NCBI GenBank assembly: GCA_000165345.1
Contig: CM000435.1
Span: 640,001 to 704,000 of the forward strand
Direction: 5' to 3'
DNA length: 64,000 nt
Made by a program: the position numbers and the translations under genes. Of this stretch, positions 29,955 through 47,860 are shown piece after piece. The notes below the pieces were generated by a model. It made no database searches. It was not told where the DNA came from and worked only from the letters and a program-made list of their open reading frames with translations. Within the stretch, counting starts at the first letter, position 1; every line of letters begins with the position of its first letter.

Positions 29955-30060
29955 TGAAAAGAGAAAAAAAACTGAAGAAAATTTATAAATAAAAATTTTG
30001 CGTAAATGCAACTAGCACTTTAATGCACAATATTTCTGCTTAAGAAAATTTGTAATTTAG

Positions 30061-32712
30061 TTACCATTTTTCTGTTATATTGCTATTCTCCCACTTCTCA
30101 CCCCAAGATTTTACCTTTTTAGACCAATTCCACATATCTCCCCATGAGTTTCCCCATTCATTACCGCTTCCATCTGTTGCATATTTATTAGCCCATTTTT
30201 CCATATACTCAGCATGTATTCCCCCATCTCCCATGGATTCATTTCCTATACCATAATATAATTCTCCCCATTCTTCACTCCATTCCTCGCCACTAATCAT
30301 TTTTTTCCCCTTCTTCGATGCACTCTTCTTACTGATATGATTTGTCGTGTCAATCTCTTCCCTCCATTCTTCTTTCCATAAATCTCCAACATTATTTTCC
30401 CCGCTCTTCCTTGCCCACTTCCATTTATTTTCGAAATCTTCTTTCCATTCTTCCTCCCATTTATCTCCGTAGCGATTTTCTCCCTTCTTCCATGCCTCTT
30501 TATATCCTGACCTTTCAGACCACCTTTCTGACCAACTTCCCTCATTATCAAAACCTTGTTTTACTGCCCACTGTTCTCCTGTATAGTCTGATTTACCAAA
30601 TTCATCTAAATACCAGTTCTCTCTACCTTTCCCTTGTTTTTTTGTATACAAATTTCCATTTCCGTCATCATTACAGGCTTCTTCCCATTCTTCAATTACT
30701 TCAGTCCGATTATCAAGATTATATTTTCTACCTCTCTTATTAACTATAAAATTTCCTGACTGATCTTGAAATTGATCTTCTGTCCAAACCTCAATTAATC
30801 CACTATCATCCATTAATTCCCAAGTGCATTTCTTTTTTAGTTTTTTTAAATGATCTTTGTTCCATTTTTCTTCCCATTTTATGAACCTATTGTTATCATG
30901 CTTCCTATCTATTCCTTTTTTATAACCATGTTGATTCAAACCATCGGTTTCCCAAGTGTCAGAGTATTCCTCAAACTCAGATAAATACCATGACTCAGTA
31001 TTTTCAATGTATAAGTGCTCATTTTGTGGTATTGAATCTACAACTTTTTCATCCAATATTTTCGAATCCTTATCATAGTTAGATTCCAGTTTTAACTGTA
31101 TTGTTTTCTTTTCCCCCCACTTTTCGCCATTTTTTTTTGTCCACCATTTATCTGTAAACAGCTTTGTTCTTATTATTTTCTGATTTATTTCGCTTCTTTT
31201 GAGGCTTTCATTCCAATTTTCAGACCATGTCTCTCCTGTTGCAAATCTTTCGCCTCTTTTTTCTCCTCTCCTAATAATTAAATCTGGTAATTTATCTTCA
31301 TCTAGATCATTAAATTGCGACTCTTCATTACATTCTTCTCTAAAAACTTCAGCTCCGTTATTATACCAATTTTCTTTTACTATCTGAATTTTCTTTCCTA
31401 ATGAAGTTTGATCAACGACCTCTGTAAACTTTTCTCCCCAAGAATTTTGTTCTCCAACTTTCTCCCAATTTTTCTCAATGTATTTTTCTCGTTTCAATCC
31501 TCCTTGTTCCTTTTTATTTTCCCATTTAACTTTAAAGCTTTCATTATTTGATTTAGAATAACCTATTTTTTCTCCCCATTGTATTTCATCATTTTCATAC
31601 CAAATATCATATTCTTTTGATCCATCAATTTCTTCAAACCAAACTTCATGTAATTCTGTGTTATCTTTATCGCCATATTTTCTGCCTTTTTTATTTCCAT
31701 GGCTATCTATTTCAATGCATTCACTCCAAGACTCCGAATATTTGATGTCATCAACTGAATTAGTAGGGCATAATCCATCAAAAGTTAGATTGCTCGAGCT
31801 GTGTCCAGAAGAGATTGCTTCAATATCAAAGGTTTCATTTTCTCCACCATATCCTTTGTAATACTTGGAATATATAATTTCTGAATTGTCTTTGAAAACT
31901 TTTTTTCTTTTAGAATAAAAATAGGGGTATTTGTTAGACCCATTAGAAATTCCCCTTTCCTCGTATAAGATTATATTATAATCATCATAGAAATCATTTG
32001 ATTCTTTCCATTCTTTTTGATCTGATATTATTTTTCCATATTTATTATTCCTAACTAATTTCCAGCTGAGCTTATTCGGATTCGAGTAAATATTTATCGA
32101 GTCAAAAATAAACTCAGAATCCTCAAACCATACCTTTAATACTCGCGAATTATTTTCACAAAGTTGTTGAACAAACTTTCTAACAAACAGTTTTCTTCCT
32201 CTTCTAAACCACTTTTCTTTCCATCTTCTGTTTTTTTTATAATCTACACCAATTAATTGGCCGAGTGATGCTCTATTGCAATTTTCAAACTTTTCACATA
32301 GAGACAAACTCTGTTCATTACTATTTTCTCTTAATTCATTTTTTAAACACTGAAAATTAATATTATTTGGTGATTCGTCTTCGCTATAAGGCATTTGGGA
32401 AATATTTGAATCTTTAGGAATATTTCTCTGTTCAATCCATTCTTCTTTCCAACTTTTGTCCCTTGCTTCTTTTTTCCCCCATAAAAGACCTTCATCGTTT
32501 CCTTCCCAAGTTTCAATGTACTCATCATTTTCGAGAGTTTTTTTTTCTCTGGAATTGAGTGACAGGTTTAATTCATCTTTCAATTCATCGTCATAGTTTG
32601 AAAAGTATAAACGGTCACCAAATGTTGATCTAATATTGTCATTAAATAATTGTTGTTCATTTTCAGCCGTCGAAATCGAGCTACGAAGGCTTTGAAATTT
32701 TGAAAATTGCAT
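30061..32712 (-). CDS. tryptophan-rich acidic/basic tandem-repeat protein, 883 aa, no known family assigned
   Basis: Uninterrupted minus-strand ORF. More than 30 degenerate repeats of the form G-x-(K/E)-W-x-E-(K/E)-W (for example GDKWEEEWKEDFENKWKW, GEKWGEKK, GNEWGNSWGDMWNWSKKVKSWGEKWENS) spread over the entire length. No signal peptide is obvious. Confidence 0.55.
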   Translation of the reverse strand: MQFSKFQSLRSSISTAENEQQLFNDNIRSTFGDRLYFSNYDDELKDELNLSLNSREKKTLENDEYIETWEGNDEGLLWGKKEARDKSWKEEWIEQRNIPKDSNISQMPYSEDESPNNINFQCLKNELRENSNEQSLSLCEKFENCNRASLGQLIGVDYKKNRRWKEKWFRRGRKLFVRKFVQQLCENNSRVLKVWFEDSEFIFDSINIYSNPNKLSWKLVRNNKYGKIISDQKEWKESNDFYDDYNIILYEERGISNGSNKYPYFYSKRKKVFKDNSEIIYSKYYKGYGGENETFDIEAISSGHSSSNLTFDGLCPTNSVDDIKYSESWSECIEIDSHGNKKGRKYGDKDNTELHEVWFEEIDGSKEYDIWYENDEIQWGEKIGYSKSNNESFKVKWENKKEQGGLKREKYIEKNWEKVGEQNSWGEKFTEVVDQTSLGKKIQIVKENWYNNGAEVFREECNEESQFNDLDEDKLPDLIIRRGEKRGERFATGETWSENWNESLKRSEINQKIIRTKLFTDKWWTKKNGEKWGEKKTIQLKLESNYDKDSKILDEKVVDSIPQNEHLYIENTESWYLSEFEEYSDTWETDGLNQHGYKKGIDRKHDNNRFIKWEEKWNKDHLKKLKKKCTWELMDDSGLIEVWTEDQFQDQSGNFIVNKRGRKYNLDNRTEVIEEWEEACNDDGNGNLYTKKQGKGRENWYLDEFGKSDYTGEQWAVKQGFDNEGSWSERWSERSGYKEAWKKGENRYGDKWEEEWKEDFENKWKWARKSGENNVGDLWKEEWREEIDTTNHISKKSASKKGKKMISGEEWSEEWGELYYGIGNESMGDGGIHAEYMEKWANKYATDGSGNEWGNSWGDMWNWSKKVKSWGEKWENSNITEKW

Positions 32713-41096: not shown

Positions 41097-41130
<34 letters not shown>

Positions 41131-41593
41131 CAGTTTAATACATCCGAAGAGCATTTATAATATAAACATTTTTTATCTGCCCATTAATCTCACACTTAAG
41201 AAGACTAGACATAAATTTATTTCACCCTTTTTTTATTTATTAAACCCAAGTCATAATTGATTAAATTGTTTTGCTATGTATAAATCATTCTTTCTTTGAA
41301 CATAAGTTTTGTTTTTGATAAAGTACTTTATTTGTTTTCGATTTTTTCCATATTTTATTAAATTTAAATAATAATTTTCATAGTTGATTAATCTACTTTT
41401 TTTGTATTGAAATATACATAGCGTTCATTATTGTTCACACATCGATTCCTCGAGAGAAAAATATTATGTCATAAATGGATGCTTATATCTAGAGTAGTAT
41501 TCATACATTAAATTCACTTAAACGTATAAATGGATCAAATGACCCATATTAAAGACTTACGGATCTTGGTGTTTTTTTAATTTAGAACAAAAA

Positions 41594-44500
41594 ATGAGAG
41601 AAATTGCCTTAAATAATATTGAATTAGAAAGACGGCCAAATTGGTGGAGAGGAAGTGAATCTGAAAATATTTTGGACCCATACTTTAAGAAGCCAATTTA
41701 CTCGGGCAAATCTAAGTTTAATTTTTTCCCAAAATTTTTAAAAGACAATATGAAATGGTTTAAAAATAGAATTCCATCAAATAATACTAATGACGATTAT
41801 TCTCAACTTAATGAGTATGATAAGAAGGCTATAATAGAATTTAGCAAACAGCAAAAAATAACTCAGGGACAAGAATCTTCACGATATAAATATATTTCGC
41901 CGTATTCTGAATATCTTTTGGAAAGATTAAAATGGAAGATTGCACTTCGAATTTACTACACACTAGATCCTAATGACAAAGGATATATAGAATTAGAACA
42001 TTCCAAGAAATTATTATTTGAAATGCTGAAGGTCGACACGGAAAAGGCACAAACACTCCTTTTGTTACTTGAAACTATTAAACCTTTCTATGCAAAGGAT
42101 GGATGCGTTGAAAAAAATGATATAATTATTTACTTGGCGAGGGAAATTTTCGATGACACAAGAGGGTATGGGCTTTTTTCAAAACTGAACAACATATTTA
42201 AAAATCCAATTAGTAGATCAAAAAAGCGGAATAATGATTGCTTTATCAATGGTTTTCAAGATGTTTATATGCCAAATAAAAAGCAAATATGTTTTTCTTC
42301 TGATCCAAACGCGATAAAGTTAAATGAAACAAATGTTAAGCAAAGTAATTCAAAAGACACAAATTATAATTGTACTTATTGTCAAAACAAAAATAAAGCT
42401 TGTATAACGTGCAAAATGAAAAAAAATTGCACTGGAAAATTAAGAGATCACATAAAGATCAGTGAAGATAGAAAAAGAAAGTTGATTGAGCGAATTAAAG
42501 AAGAAAAAAAAGAAATTAATGACAAAAATATGCTAGAATGCACATTTAAACCAGAAATTTTATGGCCAATTGGGAAATTTATAAATAAAAATAACAAAAG
42601 TTGGTTAAAGAACAAGAAGAATTTGAAAGGATCAAAGCTACCTCAAGAAAAAAAAAATGAAATATGCGGATATGAAATAATTAATGAGCAGAATATAGAA
42701 GATAAAAATATTCAAGTTTTTTTAAATCAAGGTTACTATTTTGATTCACTTAATAATTGGAATGGATATATACATGATAGTATTACAAATCAAGTTTATG
42801 TTATACATAAGGGATATTTTATGGATGATCACAATGTAGACAAAAATGAAATTTTCTATAGAAAAACAGACAAGGAGGAACAGAAGGAAATTCGGAATAA
42901 AATGCTGGATTCAATCATGAGGAAAATAAATATCGAGTTTCAAACTCTAGAAAATAATGAAAATGGCAATGAGAAAAAAAAATCATTAAATTTTGGAACA
43001 AAGAAATTAGTAGATAAACTTAGAGCTGAAAGAGAAACTGGAACTAATGACCCAAGATTAAATACACCAGAATTTACAATAGAAGTTAATCATCCTGAGT
43101 TCGTTGAGAAAATTGTTGATTTTAGTGAAATTAAGCCTTACAAAAATGTAACAAATCATGAAGATTCTGAAATCAAGAGAGAATATTCAACAAGCCCTTG
43201 TTATTATTATCTTCCAAGAGGATACGAAAGAATAGGTAATTGTTTTAATGAAATCCGGTTTAGGAGAAAACTTGATTTTTTAAAAGATAGTGTACGAGAT
43301 AACCGAAACATTGATACAAATAATAGTTCAAATCTGAAGGTGAAATCAAATTCATTTATAAACAAAGAATTTAATACGAAGAACAGTTCTTTATGTTTAG
43401 ATGAAAAGCCAGCTGGCTTAATCGAAGATACAAAAATGTCGAAAATTTTTAATAAATCAGCAAAAATTGATCCATCATCTCTAAAAGATTTAAATAAAAT
43501 TGTTGGTGCTGGCCAAAGTAAAAATGTTCAAGTTGAAAGTTTAGGAGGGTTAAAAAAAAATAATGGTTTAGATCAACACTTGCTCCTTAAAAGCCCATCA
43601 AAAAATGAGACGAACATAATTGGTTCTCATGTAAATGATGAAAGCGATTTTCAAAAAGGAAGTATTTTAGCTACCAAATTTAAGAAAGAATTAGAAGCTT
43701 CAATTAAAACAAAGAATAGTTTAAAAGTTTCATCAAAGATTGATTCCTCAATACATCTAATAAAAAAAGAAGCTGATACTTCAATTCAAACAAAGAGTAA
43801 CCTTAAAATTCCTCCAATAAAGAAAGAAGCTGATACTTCAATTCAAACAAAGAGCAAACTTAAAATTCCTCCAAAGAAAGATTTGTCAACACCTCCAGTA
43901 AAGAAAGAAGCTGATACTTCAATTCAAACAAAGAGCAACCTTAAAATTCCTCCAAAGAAAGATTTTTCAACACCTCCAATAAAGAAAGAAGCTGATACTT
44001 CAATTCAAACAAAGAGTAACATAAGAATTCCTCCAAAGAAAGATTTTTCAACACCTCCAATAAAGAAAGAAGCTGATACTTCAATTCAAACAAAGAGTAA
44101 CCTTAAAATTCCTCCAGTAAAGAAAGAAGCTGATACTTCAATTCAAACAAAGAGCAACCTTAAAGTTCCTCCAAAGAAAGATTTTTCAACACCTCCAATA
44201 AAGAAAGAAGCTGATACTTTAATTCAAACAAAGAAAAGCCTTGTTATTCCACCAAAGAAAGATTCCTCAGTACCTGTAATGAGCAAAGAAGCTGATACTC
44301 CAATCCCAATAAAGAATAATTTAAAAATTCCATCAAAAATAAATCCTTCGATGCCTCCAATAAAGAGAGTAGTTGTTACTTCGACTCAAGCAATGAACTG
44401 CCTTAAAATTCCACAAATGGAAGCAGCATCAGTACCTCCAATTAAGAAAGAAGTTGATACTTCAATTCAAACAAAAAAAAGCCTTATTATTCCACCAAAG

Positions 44501-45421
44501 AAAGATGCCTCAGTACCTGTAATGAACAAAGAAGCTGATACTTCAATTCAAACAAAGAGCAACCTTAAAATTCCTCCAAAGAAAGATTTGTCAACACCTC
44601 CAGTAAAGAAGGAAGCTGATACTTCAATTCAAACAAAGAGTAACCTTAAAATTCCTCCAAAGAAAGATTTTTCAACACCTCCAGTAAAGAAGGAAACTGA
44701 TACTTCAATTCAAACAAAGAGCAACCTTAAAATTCCTCCAAAGAAAGATTTTTCAACACCTCCAGTAAAGAAGGAAGCTGATACTTCAATTCAAACAAAG
44801 AGCAACCTTAAAATTCCTCCAAAGAAAGATTTTTCAACACCTCCAGTAAAGAAGGAAGCTGATACTTCAATTCAAACAAAGAGCAACCTTAAAATTCCTC
44901 CAAAGAAAGATTTTTCAACACCTCCAGTAAAGAAGGAAGCTGATACTTCAATTCAAACTAAGAGTAACCTTAAAATTCCTCCAAAGAAAGATTTTTCAAC
45001 ACCTCCAATAAAGAAAGAAGCTGATACTTCAATTCAAACAAAGAGCAACCTTAAAATTCCTCCAAAGAAAGATTTTTCAACACCTCCAGTAAATAAGGAA
45101 GCTGATACTTCAATTCAAACAAAGAGTAACCTTAAAATTCCACCAAAGAAAGATTTTTCAACACCTCCAATAAAGAAAGAAGCTGATACTTCAATTCAAA
45201 CAAAGAGTAACCTTAAAATTCCTCCAAAGAAAGATTTTTCAACACCTCCAGTAAAGAAAGAAGCTGATACTTCGATTCAAACAAAGAGTAACATAAGAAT
45301 TCCTCCAAAGAAAGATTTTTCAACACCTCCAATAAAGAAAGAAGCTGATACTTCAATTCAAACAAAGAGTAACCTTAAAATTCCACCAAAGAAAAATGGT
45401 TTAGTAACATCATTAAATTAG
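41594..45421 (+). CDS. K/P/T/S-rich protein with a Cys-rich N-terminal region and ~20 tandem 27-aa repeats (KKEADTSIQTKSNLKIPPKKDFSTPPV)
   Basis: ATG at 41594. The N-terminal 700 aa are non-repetitive and include CTYCQNKNKACITCKMKKNC. The C-terminal half is almost entirely the 27-aa unit, encoded by 81-bp DNA repeats. Stop at 45419-45421. Confidence 0.6.
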   Translation: MREIALNNIELERRPNWWRGSESENILDPYFKKPIYSGKSKFNFFPKFLKDNMKWFKNRIPSNNTNDDYSQLNEYDKKAIIEFSKQQKITQGQESSRYKYISPYSEYLLERLKWKIALRIYYTLDPNDKGYIELEHSKKLLFEMLKVDTEKAQTLLLLLETIKPFYAKDGCVEKNDIIIYLAREIFDDTRGYGLFSKLNNIFKNPISRSKKRNNDCFINGFQDVYMPNKKQICFSSDPNAIKLNETNVKQSNSKDTNYNCTYCQNKNKACITCKMKKNCTGKLRDHIKISEDRKRKLIERIKEEKKEINDKNMLECTFKPEILWPIGKFINKNNKSWLKNKKNLKGSKLPQEKKNEICGYEIINEQNIEDKNIQVFLNQGYYFDSLNNWNGYIHDSITNQVYVIHKGYFMDDHNVDKNEIFYRKTDKEEQKEIRNKMLDSIMRKINIEFQTLENNENGNEKKKSLNFGTKKLVDKLRAERETGTNDPRLNTPEFTIEVNHPEFVEKIVDFSEIKPYKNVTNHEDSEIKREYSTSPCYYYLPRGYERIGNCFNEIRFRRKLDFLKDSVRDNRNIDTNNSSNLKVKSNSFINKEFNTKNSSLCLDEKPAGLIEDTKMSKIFNKSAKIDPSSLKDLNKIVGAGQSKNVQVESLGGLKKNNGLDQHLLLKSPSKNETNIIGSHVNDESDFQKGSILATKFKKELEASIKTKNSLKVSSKIDSSIHLIKKEADTSIQTKSNLKIPPIKKEADTSIQTKSKLKIPPKKDLSTPPVKKEADTSIQTKSNLKIPPKKDFSTPPIKKEADTSIQTKSNIRIPPKKDFSTPPIKKEADTSIQTKSNLKIPPVKKEADTSIQTKSNLKVPPKKDFSTPPIKKEADTLIQTKKSLVIPPKKDSSVPVMSKEADTPIPIKNNLKIPSKINPSMPPIKRVVVTSTQAMNCLKIPQMEAASVPPIKKEVDTSIQTKKSLIIPPKKDASVPVMNKEADTSIQTKSNLKIPPKKDLSTPPVKKEADTSIQTKSNLKIPPKKDFSTPPVKKETDTSIQTKSNLKIPPKKDFSTPPVKKEADTSIQTKSNLKIPPKKDFSTPPVKKEADTSIQTKSNLKIPPKKDFSTPPVKKEADTSIQTKSNLKIPPKKDFSTPPIKKEADTSIQTKSNLKIPPKKDFSTPPVNKEADTSIQTKSNLKIPPKKDFSTPPIKKEADTSIQTKSNLKIPPKKDFSTPPVKKEADTSIQTKSNIRIPPKKDFSTPPIKKEADTSIQTKSNLKIPPKKNGLVTSLN
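43766..45400 (+). repeat. tandem array of ~20 copies of an 81-bp unit (some 54-bp half units), in-frame and coding
   Basis: Unit aagaaagaagctgatacttcaattcaaacaaagagcaaccttaaaattcctccaaagaaagatttttcaacacctccagta repeats head-to-tail. Copies at both ends of the array are near-identical; central copies (about 44200-44520) are diverged (KKEADTLIQTKKSLVIPPKKDSSVPVMS..., IKRVVVTSTQAMNCLKIPQMEAASVPP). Confidence 0.9.
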
Positions 45422-46314: not shown

Positions 46315-46761
46315 ATGCAGGATGAATTTGTTGATCACAAGTTGGAGACGGAATTATTTTCTATTCTATCTCCTGAACTATTAAATGAAATAATGATTGA
46401 GGAATTCCCTCACATAAGACTAGGACCTTCTGTTTCACAGGTTTTAACGACTTTGACAAACGGATTTATTCAAGACGTTGTTAAGAACTCATACATAATT
46501 TCTAAACACAAAAATCACTCCGAAGTCCAAGCTGATGATATACTAGTTTATTTAAGAATGAAATACCCTGATACTAAGCTAGAAGAGTTTTGTGAAACTA
46601 TTTCACAAAGGAAAGAAGGAAGGAGCGGAGCTGGCACTTTAGAAAGTGAGGAGGGCAATGCTGTAAGTAATAGTGGATTACTATCGATTAAATTATTTAA
46701 TACAGAGAGATTTAAAAGTAATTCAAAAATAATCAACAATTTGCGGAATAGTTCAATTTAA
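46315..46761 (+). CDS. small histone-fold-like protein, possibly TAF13-like, or alternatively the 5' exon of the downstream SLBP-like gene
   Basis: 148-aa ATG ORF. DDILVYLRMKYPDTKLEEF resembles the TAF13 histone-fold segment EDIVFLIRKDPRKFARV, and the preceding VLTTLTNGFIQDVVKNSYIIS fits a helix. The similarity is modest. It lies only 82 bp upstream of the ATG-less SLBP-like ORF. Confidence 0.35.
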   Translation: MQDEFVDHKLETELFSILSPELLNEIMIEEFPHIRLGPSVSQVLTTLTNGFIQDVVKNSYIISKHKNHSEVQADDILVYLRMKYPDTKLEEFCETISQRKEGRSGAGTLESEEGNAVSNSGLLSIKLFNTERFKSNSKIINNLRNSSI

Positions 46762-46843
46762 GCCTGAAGGCAGATATAAGTTTTAACATTAAAGATAAGC
46801 GGCTCTTTTTATAATAATTACACGAAGTTTAGGAATTTTCAAA

Positions 46844-47860
46844 TTGTTATCAAAAATAGAAGAAAGAAGGATCAGCCAAAGGCTGAAGCAGATCAACATA
46901 GCAAAGAATAGCGTTGGATATCAAAGGTACACAACTGCGGTGAGAAAAAATGAAAGGAAGAGAGAGTTAAGTTTTACTTGGCATCCTTCTACCCCAGATC
47001 CATACTCAAATACAAGTAAATCATGCTTTTCAGGTAGATTAAAAGAATGGAAATTGAGATTACATCTTTGGGGAAATCTTGATGATCTAGAATATAGTAA
47101 TCTAATTCAAAACAACTTAAAATTCCCACCTGGAGCAAATTCAAACCCTTTTAGTAAAGTCAATTATTTTGAAAATATTTTAGATAATGGTAATGACAAT
47201 ACGAATGAGTCATCACTTAAGTTTATTAGGTTCTCTGAACTCAGAATCTCTCCAATTAGTTTTTCCGGACAAAATTCGTTAATCAAAACTAACAGAGGCG
47301 AACGAATTAGCAAATCAGATTCTCTAGTAAATTCGATCAAGTTGTCTAGAAAAATCTTGTTGCCAAAAGTAATGGATTGTGAGAAAAGCCATGATATTAT
47401 GAAATATATCACTCTTTTCATTCCAGATAATTACAAAGGCATGCTGATATGGAAATCAACTAATTTTATACGTCATTGTGATATTATCCTTACAGCACAC
47501 AAACACCGTCTGAAAATCTTAAAGCATGGTTTATCTCTATTCGAATTTAACAAGAGGTATAATATCGATGTTTCTGGGCTAGCACACAACTCAAACAATT
47601 TTCTGAAGGATATTCAAATTAGTATATCCGGTATTGATAGCAACTCTAATAAATTATGCAAATTAAGTGATAAGCCATATAAAAACATCTGTACTCTAAT
47701 AAGTCACCAAAAAATGATTAGTCATTTTTCAAAAAAAGTAGTTTTGACTCAAAACAAGTTATTTGGTTTCAGAGAGCAAGACGTATTCAAGCTGTCTTTT
47801 GCCTATCACCCTTCCTCTATCATTTACTACAAGATCCTAGAAAAGCTACATAAGAGTTAA
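46844..47860 (+). CDS. SLBP: stem-loop binding protein (SLBP)-like RNA-binding protein; N-terminus unresolved
   Basis: RISQRLKQINIAKNSVGYQRYTTAVRKNERKRE...WHPSTPDPYSN...FSGRLKEWKLRLHLWG aligns with the SLBP RBD [28 protein letters not shown]...[31 protein letters not shown]. The ORF opens with TTG and has no in-frame ATG until about residue 185, so the true 5' end must lie in an upstream exon. Confidence 0.7.
   Translation: MLSKIEERRISQRLKQINIAKNSVGYQRYTTAVRKNERKRELSFTWHPSTPDPYSNTSKSCFSGRLKEWKLRLHLWGNLDDLEYSNLIQNNLKFPPGANSNPFSKVNYFENILDNGNDNTNESSLKFIRFSELRISPISFSGQNSLIKTNRGERISKSDSLVNSIKLSRKILLPKVMDCEKSHDIMKYITLFIPDNYKGMLIWKSTNFIRHCDIILTAHKHRLKILKHGLSLFEFNKRYNIDVSGLAHNSNNFLKDIQISISGIDSNSNKLCKLSDKPYKNICTLISHQKMISHFSKKVVLTQNKLFGFREQDVFKLSFAYHPSSIIYYKILEKLHKS

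Follow-up and report, generated by a model that had tools for sequence, protein, structure and literature searches.

An 81-bp in-frame repeat array in the Cryptosporidium parvum gene cgd7_2870: unit anatomy, divergence between sister species, and copy number between assemblies

Coding mini- and microsatellites are used for the subtyping of Cryptosporidium, among them the serine-codon repeats of gp60 and the loci MSC6-7, CP47, and MS5. The central repeats of the Plasmodium circumsporozoite protein (CSP) are a known case of a concertedly evolving array in a parasite protein. Here, an array in the C. parvum gene cgd7_2870 is described. The gene lies in a 64-kb window of the Iowa II genome (the whole stretch analyzed, 64,000 nucleotides of contig CM000435.1 in GenBank assembly GCA_000165345.1; all positions below are those of the window). 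The 3′ half of cgd7_2870 is very probably a coding minisatellite built of 81-bp (27-amino-acid) units, with turnover by unequal exchange or slippage. Like the subtyping loci, it consists of in-frame tandem repeats within C. parvum and C. hominis genes, with a copy number that varies by isolate and by species, and slippage or unequal-exchange dynamics are presumed in both cases. Unlike these loci, cgd7_2870 has a far longer unit (81 bp), a larger array (1.65–1.9 kb, 21–24 units), a core that is not homogenized, and a protein that is predicted not to be secreted, and it is not an established typing marker. With CSP-type arrays it shares units that are more similar within a species, a variable copy number, and changes by whole units. 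CSP-type proteins, however, are secreted or surface antigens under immune pressure, whereas the cgd7_2870 product carries no recognizable secretion signal and its transcript is enriched in females.

The 1275-amino-acid (aa) product of the open reading frame (ORF) was identified by exact-sequence look-up as XP_628454.1 / EAK90299.1 of C. parvum Iowa II. The product is named "hypothetical protein" in XP_628454.1 and "Uncharacterized low complexity protein" in UniRef. The name cgd7_2870, on chromosome 7, was assigned because of the orthologue tags CHM_7g2870 and cpbgf_7002870 and the paper PMC4637869. Orthologues were found in 11 other Cryptosporidium species. The gene and the parts of its repeat array are as follows.

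41594..45421, plus strand: complete intron-less ORF cgd7_2870, 1275 aa (ORF list, exact-sequence match)
43688..43759, plus strand: degenerate proto-unit ELEASIKTKNSLKVSSKIDSSIHL at the 5′ edge of the array (period-138 row from 43698 of Tandem Repeats Finder, translation)
43760..44197, plus strand: 5′ homogenized sub-array, units 1–6, both 57-bp units included (95–99% identity to the consensus)
44198..44521, plus strand: old diverged core, units 7–10 (73–83% identity to the consensus)
44522..45394, plus strand: 3′ homogenized sub-array, units 11–21 (93–100% identity to the consensus)
45395..45421, plus strand: unique C-terminal tail NGLVTSLN and stop codon (translation)

Using Tandem Repeats Finder (TRF), an 81-bp period was detected in two overlapping stretches. 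The first, 43811-44116, holds 3.8 copies with 93% matches; the second, 44111-45394, holds 15.9 copies with 87% matches, is free of indels, and scores 1819. Toward the 5′ side of the array, additional periods (57, 138, and 219 bp) correspond to a mix of long and short units. The cgd7_2870 array is the sole tandem repeat with a TRF score of at least 150 in the 64-kb window. Matches to a 32-nt core of the unit (at most 3 mismatches) numbered 19, all within 43766-45369, and none was obtained in 100 shuffles. A prior reading of the letters by a model, referred to below as the sequence-only reading, had counted about 20 copies of the 81-bp unit at 43766-45400, with a few 54-bp half units. The array is confirmed, and its in-frame parse gives exactly 21 units over 43760-45394, namely 18 of 81 bp, 2 of 57 bp, and a terminal partial unit of 63 bp. 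The short units, at 43760-43816 and 44060-44116, therefore measure 57 bp (19 codons) and not 54 bp; each is without precisely the 24 bp separating two CCTCCA motifs of the unit. The consensus unit is IKKEADTSIQTKSNLKIPPKKDFSTPP, which starts IKKEADTS... and finishes ...DFSTPP. Array and tail together form the final 553 codons of the gene. A single frame is open over the array, with 20–49 stops in each of the other five, and the tail is kept as GLVTSLN in C. hominis and as GLVISLN in C. tyzzeri. A protein database search with the array alone returned zero matches and missed the known orthologues as well, probably through composition filtering and word saturation, and is hence uninformative.

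The array is composed of four parts (proto-unit, 5′ sub-array, old core, and 3′ sub-array) and is not one block with a decayed middle. The diverged central copies that had been noticed around 44200-44520 correspond to units 7–10 (44198-44521), which are 73–83% identical to the consensus; for the remaining units, identity is 93–100%. These outer copies had also been called almost identical at synonymous positions. This holds only roughly, with a mean proportion of synonymous differences (pS) of 0.10 (0.103) and of nonsynonymous differences (pN) of 0.03 (0.033). For the core units, pS is 0.31 and pN 0.28. The outer units differ through a few recurrent variants, and certain pairs, such as units 14 and 15, show no difference at all. 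Units 12–16 and 18 carry G at unit positions 1 and 9. A rare NIR variant is common to units 4 and 20, and the block of units 3–5 matches the block of units 19–21 at 214/219 positions.

Units were subsequently compared one by one at the DNA level between C. parvum (this window) and the sister species C. hominis and C. tyzzeri. Strictly closer to another C. parvum unit were 17 of the 21 units in the comparison with C. hominis (2 ties) and 18 of the 21 in that with C. tyzzeri (1 tie), the exceptions being units 8 and 9. Unit 8 shares 90% identity with C. hominis unit 3 and 96% with C. tyzzeri unit 5; for unit 9, the corresponding values are 96% (C. hominis unit 4) and 98% (C. tyzzeri unit 6). With any other C. 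parvum unit, this pair (44279-44440) reaches just 77–79% identity. For the other 19 units, the best C. parvum paralogue is 92.6–100% identical (97.5–100% excluding the old pair 7/10). For none of them does a sister-species unit come closer, the ties being units 2 and 11 with C. hominis and unit 11 with C. tyzzeri. Concerted evolution, which the sequence-only reading had deduced from the letters, was thereby borne out: for 19 of the 21 units, the best C. parvum paralogue equals or exceeds any sister-species unit in identity, and the arrays carry species-specific variants, distributed as follows.

DFSTPP: C. parvum 12 of 21 units, C. hominis 1 of 18, C. tyzzeri 0 of 14
DLSIPP: C. parvum 0 units, C. 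hominis 7, C. tyzzeri 0
ADISIQ: C. parvum 0 units, C. hominis 0, C. tyzzeri 5

A different unit variant has been amplified in each species. Units 7 and 10, 93% alike, form an old pair. At the protein level, a conserved core takes in units 8–10 together with the end of unit 7 and the beginning of unit 11 (...DSSVPV / MSKEADT.. / IKR.VVTSTQAMNC.. / IKKEVDT..KKSL.. / MNKEADT..). A second old pair (..ILSKEDSSILT / MKKEVDTSIQ..) is common to C. hominis and C. tyzzeri and was lost from C. parvum. Units 7–10 form an old core that predates the split of C. parvum, C. hominis, and C. tyzzeri and that is no longer homogenized. The "diverged centre" of the array is better seen as a core that escaped from homogenization, flanked by two sub-arrays that expanded after speciation. 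Homogenization is partly local.

Unit counts were obtained from assemblies, not from reads. The length polymorphism proposed in the sequence-only reading was found among C. parvum assemblies (21, 22, and 24 units) and between species (18 units in C. hominis, 14 in C. tyzzeri). Array lengths were as follows.

C. parvum Iowa II (this window): array 1653 bp, 21 units
C. parvum HLJ (GCA_048859185.1): array 1710 bp, 22 units
C. parvum BGF T2T (GCA_035232765.1): array 1896 bp, 24 units
43IA8 (GCA_031892065.1): array 1896 bp, 24 units
C. parvum ATCC (GCA_015245375.1): array 1886 bp, about 24 units
C. hominis: array 1452 bp, 18 units
C. tyzzeri: array 1134 bp, 14 units

The length changes seen among these arrays (57 bp, 243 bp) comprise whole units and leave the frame intact. 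Chromosome-level assemblies, BGF and ATCC being long-read hybrids, support a difference in copy number between C. parvum isolates (22 units in HLJ versus 24 in BGF). Across ~8 kb outside the array, no difference separates the window, BGF, 43IA8, and ATCC, and the arrays of BGF and 43IA8 are one base apart. The BGF gene equals the window gene with one 243-bp block added, this block being 242/243 identical to the adjoining 243 bp. HLJ differs by a few SNPs and by an additional 57-bp unit right after 44116, and the 243-bp block is absent from it. The position of the block in the window is given below.

45143..45384, plus strand: zone of the 243-bp (3-unit) block missing from the window, placement ambiguous (comparison with BGF, 43IA8, and ATCC)

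Because three assemblies of the same haplotype carry 24 units, the window is probably low by one 243-bp block (3 units). Its 21-unit state would stem either from a collapse in the Sanger assembly or from a recent loss of one 243-bp block. On balance, a partial artefact is favored, that is, a real array of which 21 units is an under-count, a near-perfect 243-bp duplication having been collapsed when Iowa II was assembled from Sanger reads in 2004. Consistent with such a collapse, BGF, 43IA8, and ATCC match the window over the ~8 kb outside the array yet all carry 243 bp extra (ATCC, at 1886 bp, with small deletions), and a block differing from its neighbor at one position in 243 is a collapse-prone kind of repeat. 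The Iowa II reference contains 12 compressions of at least 2x depth, and ~2.3 kb was regained with long reads (Baptista et al. 2022, PMC8744675), which likewise counts for collapse. On the other hand, HLJ is also without the 243-bp block, so a structure lacking it exists, and Iowa lines held in different places go on evolving (PMC8744675), which makes a genuine loss in the sequenced line possible. The suspicion that the repeats as a whole could be an assembly artefact was dismissed on the basis of the same unit order in all 5 other C. parvum assemblies examined and of orthologous arrays in 2 sister species; the part of it that holds is a window count that is probably 3 units low.

Gene models of this locus were found to vary as well. 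The BGF model is labelled "partial" (1261 aa) although the ORF is open over 1356 aa. The C. hominis UdeA01 model (831 aa) has 4 units, versus 18 in two other C. hominis assemblies, and in it the unique 5′ flank is fused straight to units 15–18 of the 18-unit array. For C. hominis UdeA01, Isaza et al. 2015 (PMC4637869) reported that cgd7_2870 had lost 1,248 bp through a deletion "in the repetitive region".

The exchange between near-identical units would take place by unequal sister-chromatid or meiotic crossover, or by replication slippage. Cryptosporidium undergoes meiosis in every host. The 57-bp units may have been born by microhomology-mediated deletion between the two CCTCCA motifs (PP-KK sub-motifs). 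Several points weigh against this account of array turnover. The pS of ~0.10 among the outer units resembles the synonymous divergence (dS) of 0.077 between C. parvum and C. hominis, so homogenization is incomplete and partly local. The putative homogenizing process, be it crossover, conversion, or slippage, is read from the pattern alone. The 21-unit count of the window is doubtful, as it conflicts with three same-haplotype assemblies, and the differences between assemblies could partly be assembly error rather than biology. One unit of the ATCC array contains clustered indel errors (small deletions), which cut the annotated protein to 1260 aa, and a collapse of short reads probably explains the 4-unit model of UdeA01, on which the published 1,248-bp deletion is based.

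The composition of the tail was analyzed across the genus. The isoelectric point (pI) of the whole protein is 9.65, and that of the array is 10.0, with 20% K, 14% P, 11% S, and 10% T; across its 553 aa, the net charge amounts to about +59. A K-rich tail (14–19% K) is present in all Cryptosporidium orthologues. The 27-aa periodicity is strong in C. parvum, C. hominis, and C. tyzzeri alone, and chipmunk genotype I and C. ubiquitum retain a decayed form of it. In C. canis, a 53-aa unit stands in place of the 27-aa unit, and C. felis has a local 50-aa unit. C. xiaoi, C. ryanae, and the gastric species show no tail periodicity, which is confined to the intestinal clade. The element best retained across arrays is NL[KIM][IVM]PPKK[DE], and its retention points to a greater weight of composition, length, and a short repeated motif than of the exact sequence. 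In the C. muris orthologue, a separate 11-aa tandem repeat (IETKSDIHPKQ / IETKSNIYPKQ, 5 copies) occurs at another site in the protein, ~aa 570–625, and one or two copies of it are found at the same site in C. andersoni and C. serpentis. As the C. muris repeat is independent, repeat birth recurs in the low-complexity region of this protein.

By hydropathy analysis, no indication of a signal peptide was obtained (mean hydropathy of the first 20 residues, -1.12). No membrane-like segment was detected either (maximum 19-residue Kyte–Doolittle mean, 0.8), and the C-terminus is hydrophilic and not of the type that receives a glycosylphosphatidylinositol (GPI) anchor. By these criteria the protein is predicted to be intracellular. 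The surface association put forward in the sequence-only reading thus lacks a signal peptide, a hydrophobic segment, and a GPI-like C-terminus.

The N-terminal ~560 aa are conserved across the genus. The ratio of nonsynonymous to synonymous divergence (dN/dS) is 0.20 versus C. hominis and 0.28 versus C. tyzzeri (range 0.20–0.34), and this module is under purifying selection. Three features were located in it.

41888..42229, plus strand: EF-hand-like helix-loop-helix pair, aa 99–212, best-conserved part of the protein, common to the coccidian homologues (alignments, AlphaFold2 model)
42371..42430, plus strand: Cys cluster CTYCQNKNKACITCKMKKNC, aa 260–279, five Cys (translation; not conserved)
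42434..42568, plus strand: long helix (GxLxDHI...R...) with an ECTF[KH]P motif at its end, aa 281–325, common to the coccidian homologues (alignments)

The N-terminal Cys cluster had been pointed out from the sequence; it is present, but conservation does not extend to it. Across 12 species, C270 is the only invariant Cys of the cluster, and the gastric species are without most of these residues. A zinc-finger reading of the cluster was dropped, the Cys positions not being conserved in orthologues.

The 114-aa core (aa 99–212) was modelled using AlphaFold2 (AF2) with a predicted local distance difference test score (pLDDT) of 82.5 and a predicted template modelling score (pTM) of 0.74. The model consists of two helix-loop-helix elements with short beta bridges in the loops, and two further helices. 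Modelling of aa 1–564 with 10 orthologues yielded a pLDDT of 40.7, too low for a fold search; in this full N-terminal model the GxLxDHI helix is the best-predicted one (pLDDT about 73). A PDB profile search with the core gave 33 sub-threshold matches, mostly EF-hand proteins, the best being a centrin (E 0.042). With Foldseek, the top matches of the core were calexcitin, calcium-dependent protein kinases (CDPKs), calmodulin, centrin, and sorcin, with a best E of 0.078 and a template modelling (TM) score of about 0.5 (0.45–0.55). No Pfam family was assigned to the whole protein, the isolated core, or seven homologues, and an EF-hand match on the core was not obtained even at E up to 10. A PDB sequence search with the 564-aa N-terminal profile returned nothing at E up to 1. 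In the canonical 12-residue EF-hand loop, D, N, or S stands at positions 1, 3, and 5, G at position 6, and E or D at position 12, and neither predicted loop has this arrangement. Loop 1, DPNDKGYIELEH, is non-canonical at positions 5 (K) and 12 (H), and in loop 2, YAKDGCVEKNDI, position 1 is Y and not an acidic residue. Calcium binding is doubtful because both loops are without canonical ligands. Compared with the known EF-hand pair proteins (centrin, calmodulin, troponin C, and calexcitin), the predicted core has the same topology of two helix-loop-helix elements, but its matches are sub-significant, a Pfam EF-hand is missing, and the ligands of the loops are not the canonical ones. The core may be an EF-hand-like pair with degenerate loops.

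By hmmsearch of 1.84 billion representative proteins, 13 matches were obtained, 6 of which are Cryptosporidium orthologues. Of the 7 others, 6 are named coccidian or Cardiosporidium, with E from 1e-10 to 3e-5. A search with the core profile alone gave three Eimeria-like fragments and nothing else. The homologues comprise those of Toxoplasma gondii (TGME49_293540), Neospora, Hammondia (in the Toxoplasma cluster), Besnoitia (BESB_010930), Eimeria, and Cyclospora, plus Cardiosporidium IE077_004107; all are uncharacterized. They share with cgd7_2870 the EF-hand-like core of ~115 aa (LDPxxxGYI...), the GxLxDHI...R helix, ECTF[KH]P, and a VxHxG motif. They differ from it in length (~470–750 aa), in K content (6–9% versus 14–19%), and in having neither a lysine-rich tail nor tandem repeats.

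Expression data came from Tandel et al. 2019, who applied RNA-seq to sorted stages (PMC6877471, supplementary file 4). For cgd7_2870, the log2 counts per million (CPM) are 5.09 in asexual stages, and in females they reach 8.22 in vitro and 6.82 in vivo. The log2 fold change (logFC) of females over asexual stages is 3.14, or ~9-fold (PMC6877471). Among the sporozoite comparisons, the gene is present only in the sheet "SporoVSinvitro-Female" (PMC6877471, supplementary file 8), the name of which suggests genes found in females but not in sporozoites. On the basis of the values in PMC6877471, cgd7_2870 is expressed and female-enriched at the transcript level. In a literature search, cgd7_2870 was found in the text of one paper only (PMC4637869). 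Nothing was found under other gene IDs or on the function of the Toxoplasma homologue, one query being confounded by a number that matched DOIs. The gene is not mentioned in the supplements of the AP2-F paper, and a protein-level or localization record was not found in the literature.

With regard to function, it is possible, and is put forward tentatively, that the tail acts as a disordered, polycationic, multivalent scaffold on the EF-hand-like module in female gametes or zygotes. Such a tail would repeat a short [LI]K[IV]PPKK[DE] / KKE motif 18–24 times, and selection would act on frame, length, and composition, not on the exact sequence. Its likely partners would be polyanions, either microtubules or nucleic acids, in female gametes or zygotes, and both versions are candidates. 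Two findings count against the functional part of the interpretation. The EF-hand-like assignment draws on sub-threshold matches (E at least 0.04 and at least 0.08), and no Pfam, PDB-sequence, or literature link was obtained for the tail or for the Toxoplasma homologue. As a microtubule-associated protein (MAP), the idea raised in the sequence-only reading, cgd7_2870 would bind the acidic tubulin surface through its K/P/T-rich units as MAP repeats do, copy number setting the valency; this version is rather unlikely. The basic repetitive tail, with its 18 KKE motifs, would suit it, as would a protein that is non-secreted by sequence criteria and an EF-hand-like core with centrin as its best sub-threshold match. 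The KKE-rich tail recalls the KKEE/KKE[IV] repeats of MAP1B, and with the lysine-rich repeats of MAPs (MAP1B KKEE; tau/MAP2/MAP4) it has in common a basic P- and K-rich, probably disordered character and many short motifs including KKE. The tubulin-binding repeat of tau/MAP2/MAP4 is a 31–32-aa unit with PGGG. In contrast, homology to these proteins was not detected, the cgd7_2870 translation contains no PGGG, and the whole protein is without any Pfam match, hence without one to the tau/MAP tubulin-binding repeat. Sporozoites are rich in subpellicular microtubules, and the sole sporozoite-comparison entry of cgd7_2870 is the "SporoVSinvitro-Female" sheet, which speaks against a MAP, as does the lack of the tail in the coccidian homologues. 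The female-only list that holds cgd7_2870 also includes alpha- and beta-tubulin and a kinesin (PMC6877471), in line with a MAP. The same list has MCM, RPA, FEN1, Bub1, and Nuf2 (replication, meiosis), and these, with the female-enriched transcript, would fit a chromatin or nucleic-acid binder instead.

Such a binder would use a basic K/P/S/T-rich tail of the histone-H1 type to engage AT-rich DNA, or else RNA, within the macrogamete or zygote, and is judged a little less probable again than a MAP. The net charge of about +59 over 553 aa (K 20%, P 14%, S+T 21%) and the recurrent TPP[IV]KK and IPPKK motifs are in its favor. These motifs are loosely like S/TPKK motifs. A canonical SPKK motif is missing, however, Pfam recognized no DNA- or RNA-binding domain, and each unit has three acidic residues, unlike H1 tails. 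A secreted or surface repeat antigen under immune-driven diversification is very improbable. Parasite antigens typically carry tandem repeats that have species-specific variants and change in copy number, and a surface association had been proposed in the sequence-only reading. Opposed to this are the missing signal peptide and membrane-spanning hydrophobicity, the hydrophilic C-terminus, a pN (0.033) that is lower than pS (0.103) among the homogenized units, and a transcript that is highest in intracellular female stages; a secreted or surface role is unlikely. Returning to the scaffold, the unit number might set its valency for a polyanionic partner in the female gamete or zygote, in which case array turnover would be phenotypic and not neutral drift in a tolerant disordered tail. 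This extension is considered quite improbable. If true, it would entail effects on fertilization, meiosis, or oocyst output, adding to the differences between host-adapted Cryptosporidium lineages.

Elsewhere, the 64-kb window has a G+C content of 30% and is crowded with long intron-less ORFs, including those for a papain-family protease, an mRNA cap methyltransferase, an SLBP-like protein, and a TFIID-like protein. HLJ is without ~290 bp (window 41100-41393) of the intergenic stretch that separates cgd7_2870 from its divergent neighbor upstream, a sequence present in all 4 Iowa-type assemblies; this gap begins at an (AT)14 microsatellite, 41100-41127. A scan for bacterial promoters and terminators upstream of cgd7_2870 gave shuffle-level results only, and its models are irrelevant to a eukaryote. 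The C. tyzzeri and ATCC annotations give separate genes for the ORF 46315-46761, with a weak TFIID_20kDa match, and the ORF 46844-47860, with an SLBP RNA-binding domain. The same pair (46315-47860) is a single spliced gene of 467 aa in the annotations of 43IA8, HLJ, and C. hominis CHM. As the annotations either split or merge the two ORFs, the gene model at 46315-47860 is unsettled. The strongest strand asymmetry of the window was measured at 30001-32000 (GC skew -0.47, AT skew -0.28), inside the minus-strand ORF 30061-32712 (883 aa), and this region may be another compositionally biased or low-complexity coding region.

The cgd7_2870 array is an ordinary coding minisatellite in an uncharacterized protein and not a new kind of element, and the understanding of repeat evolution or of the parasite is unchanged by it. 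The gene annotation, the variation of the repeat region (noted in 2015), and concertedly evolving coding minisatellites in Cryptosporidium and other parasites were already known. New are the unit-level anatomy, the likely 243-bp under-count in the reference, and the link of the N-terminal module to an uncharacterized coccidian family. For users of the genome, the reference for cgd7_2870 is probably 243 bp short, the ATCC and BGF models under-represent the array, and comparison of isolates at this locus calls for spanning long reads or PCR. With its 57-, 81-, and 243-bp steps, the 1.6–1.9-kb array could serve as a PCR-size marker for close C. parvum lines. The locus offers a small, clear case of coding repeat evolution, in which an old core has stayed orthologous while the neighboring sub-arrays expand per species. 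The uncharacterized family common to Cryptosporidium and the coccidians, with a female-enriched transcript in the case of cgd7_2870, is a reasonable target for tagging.

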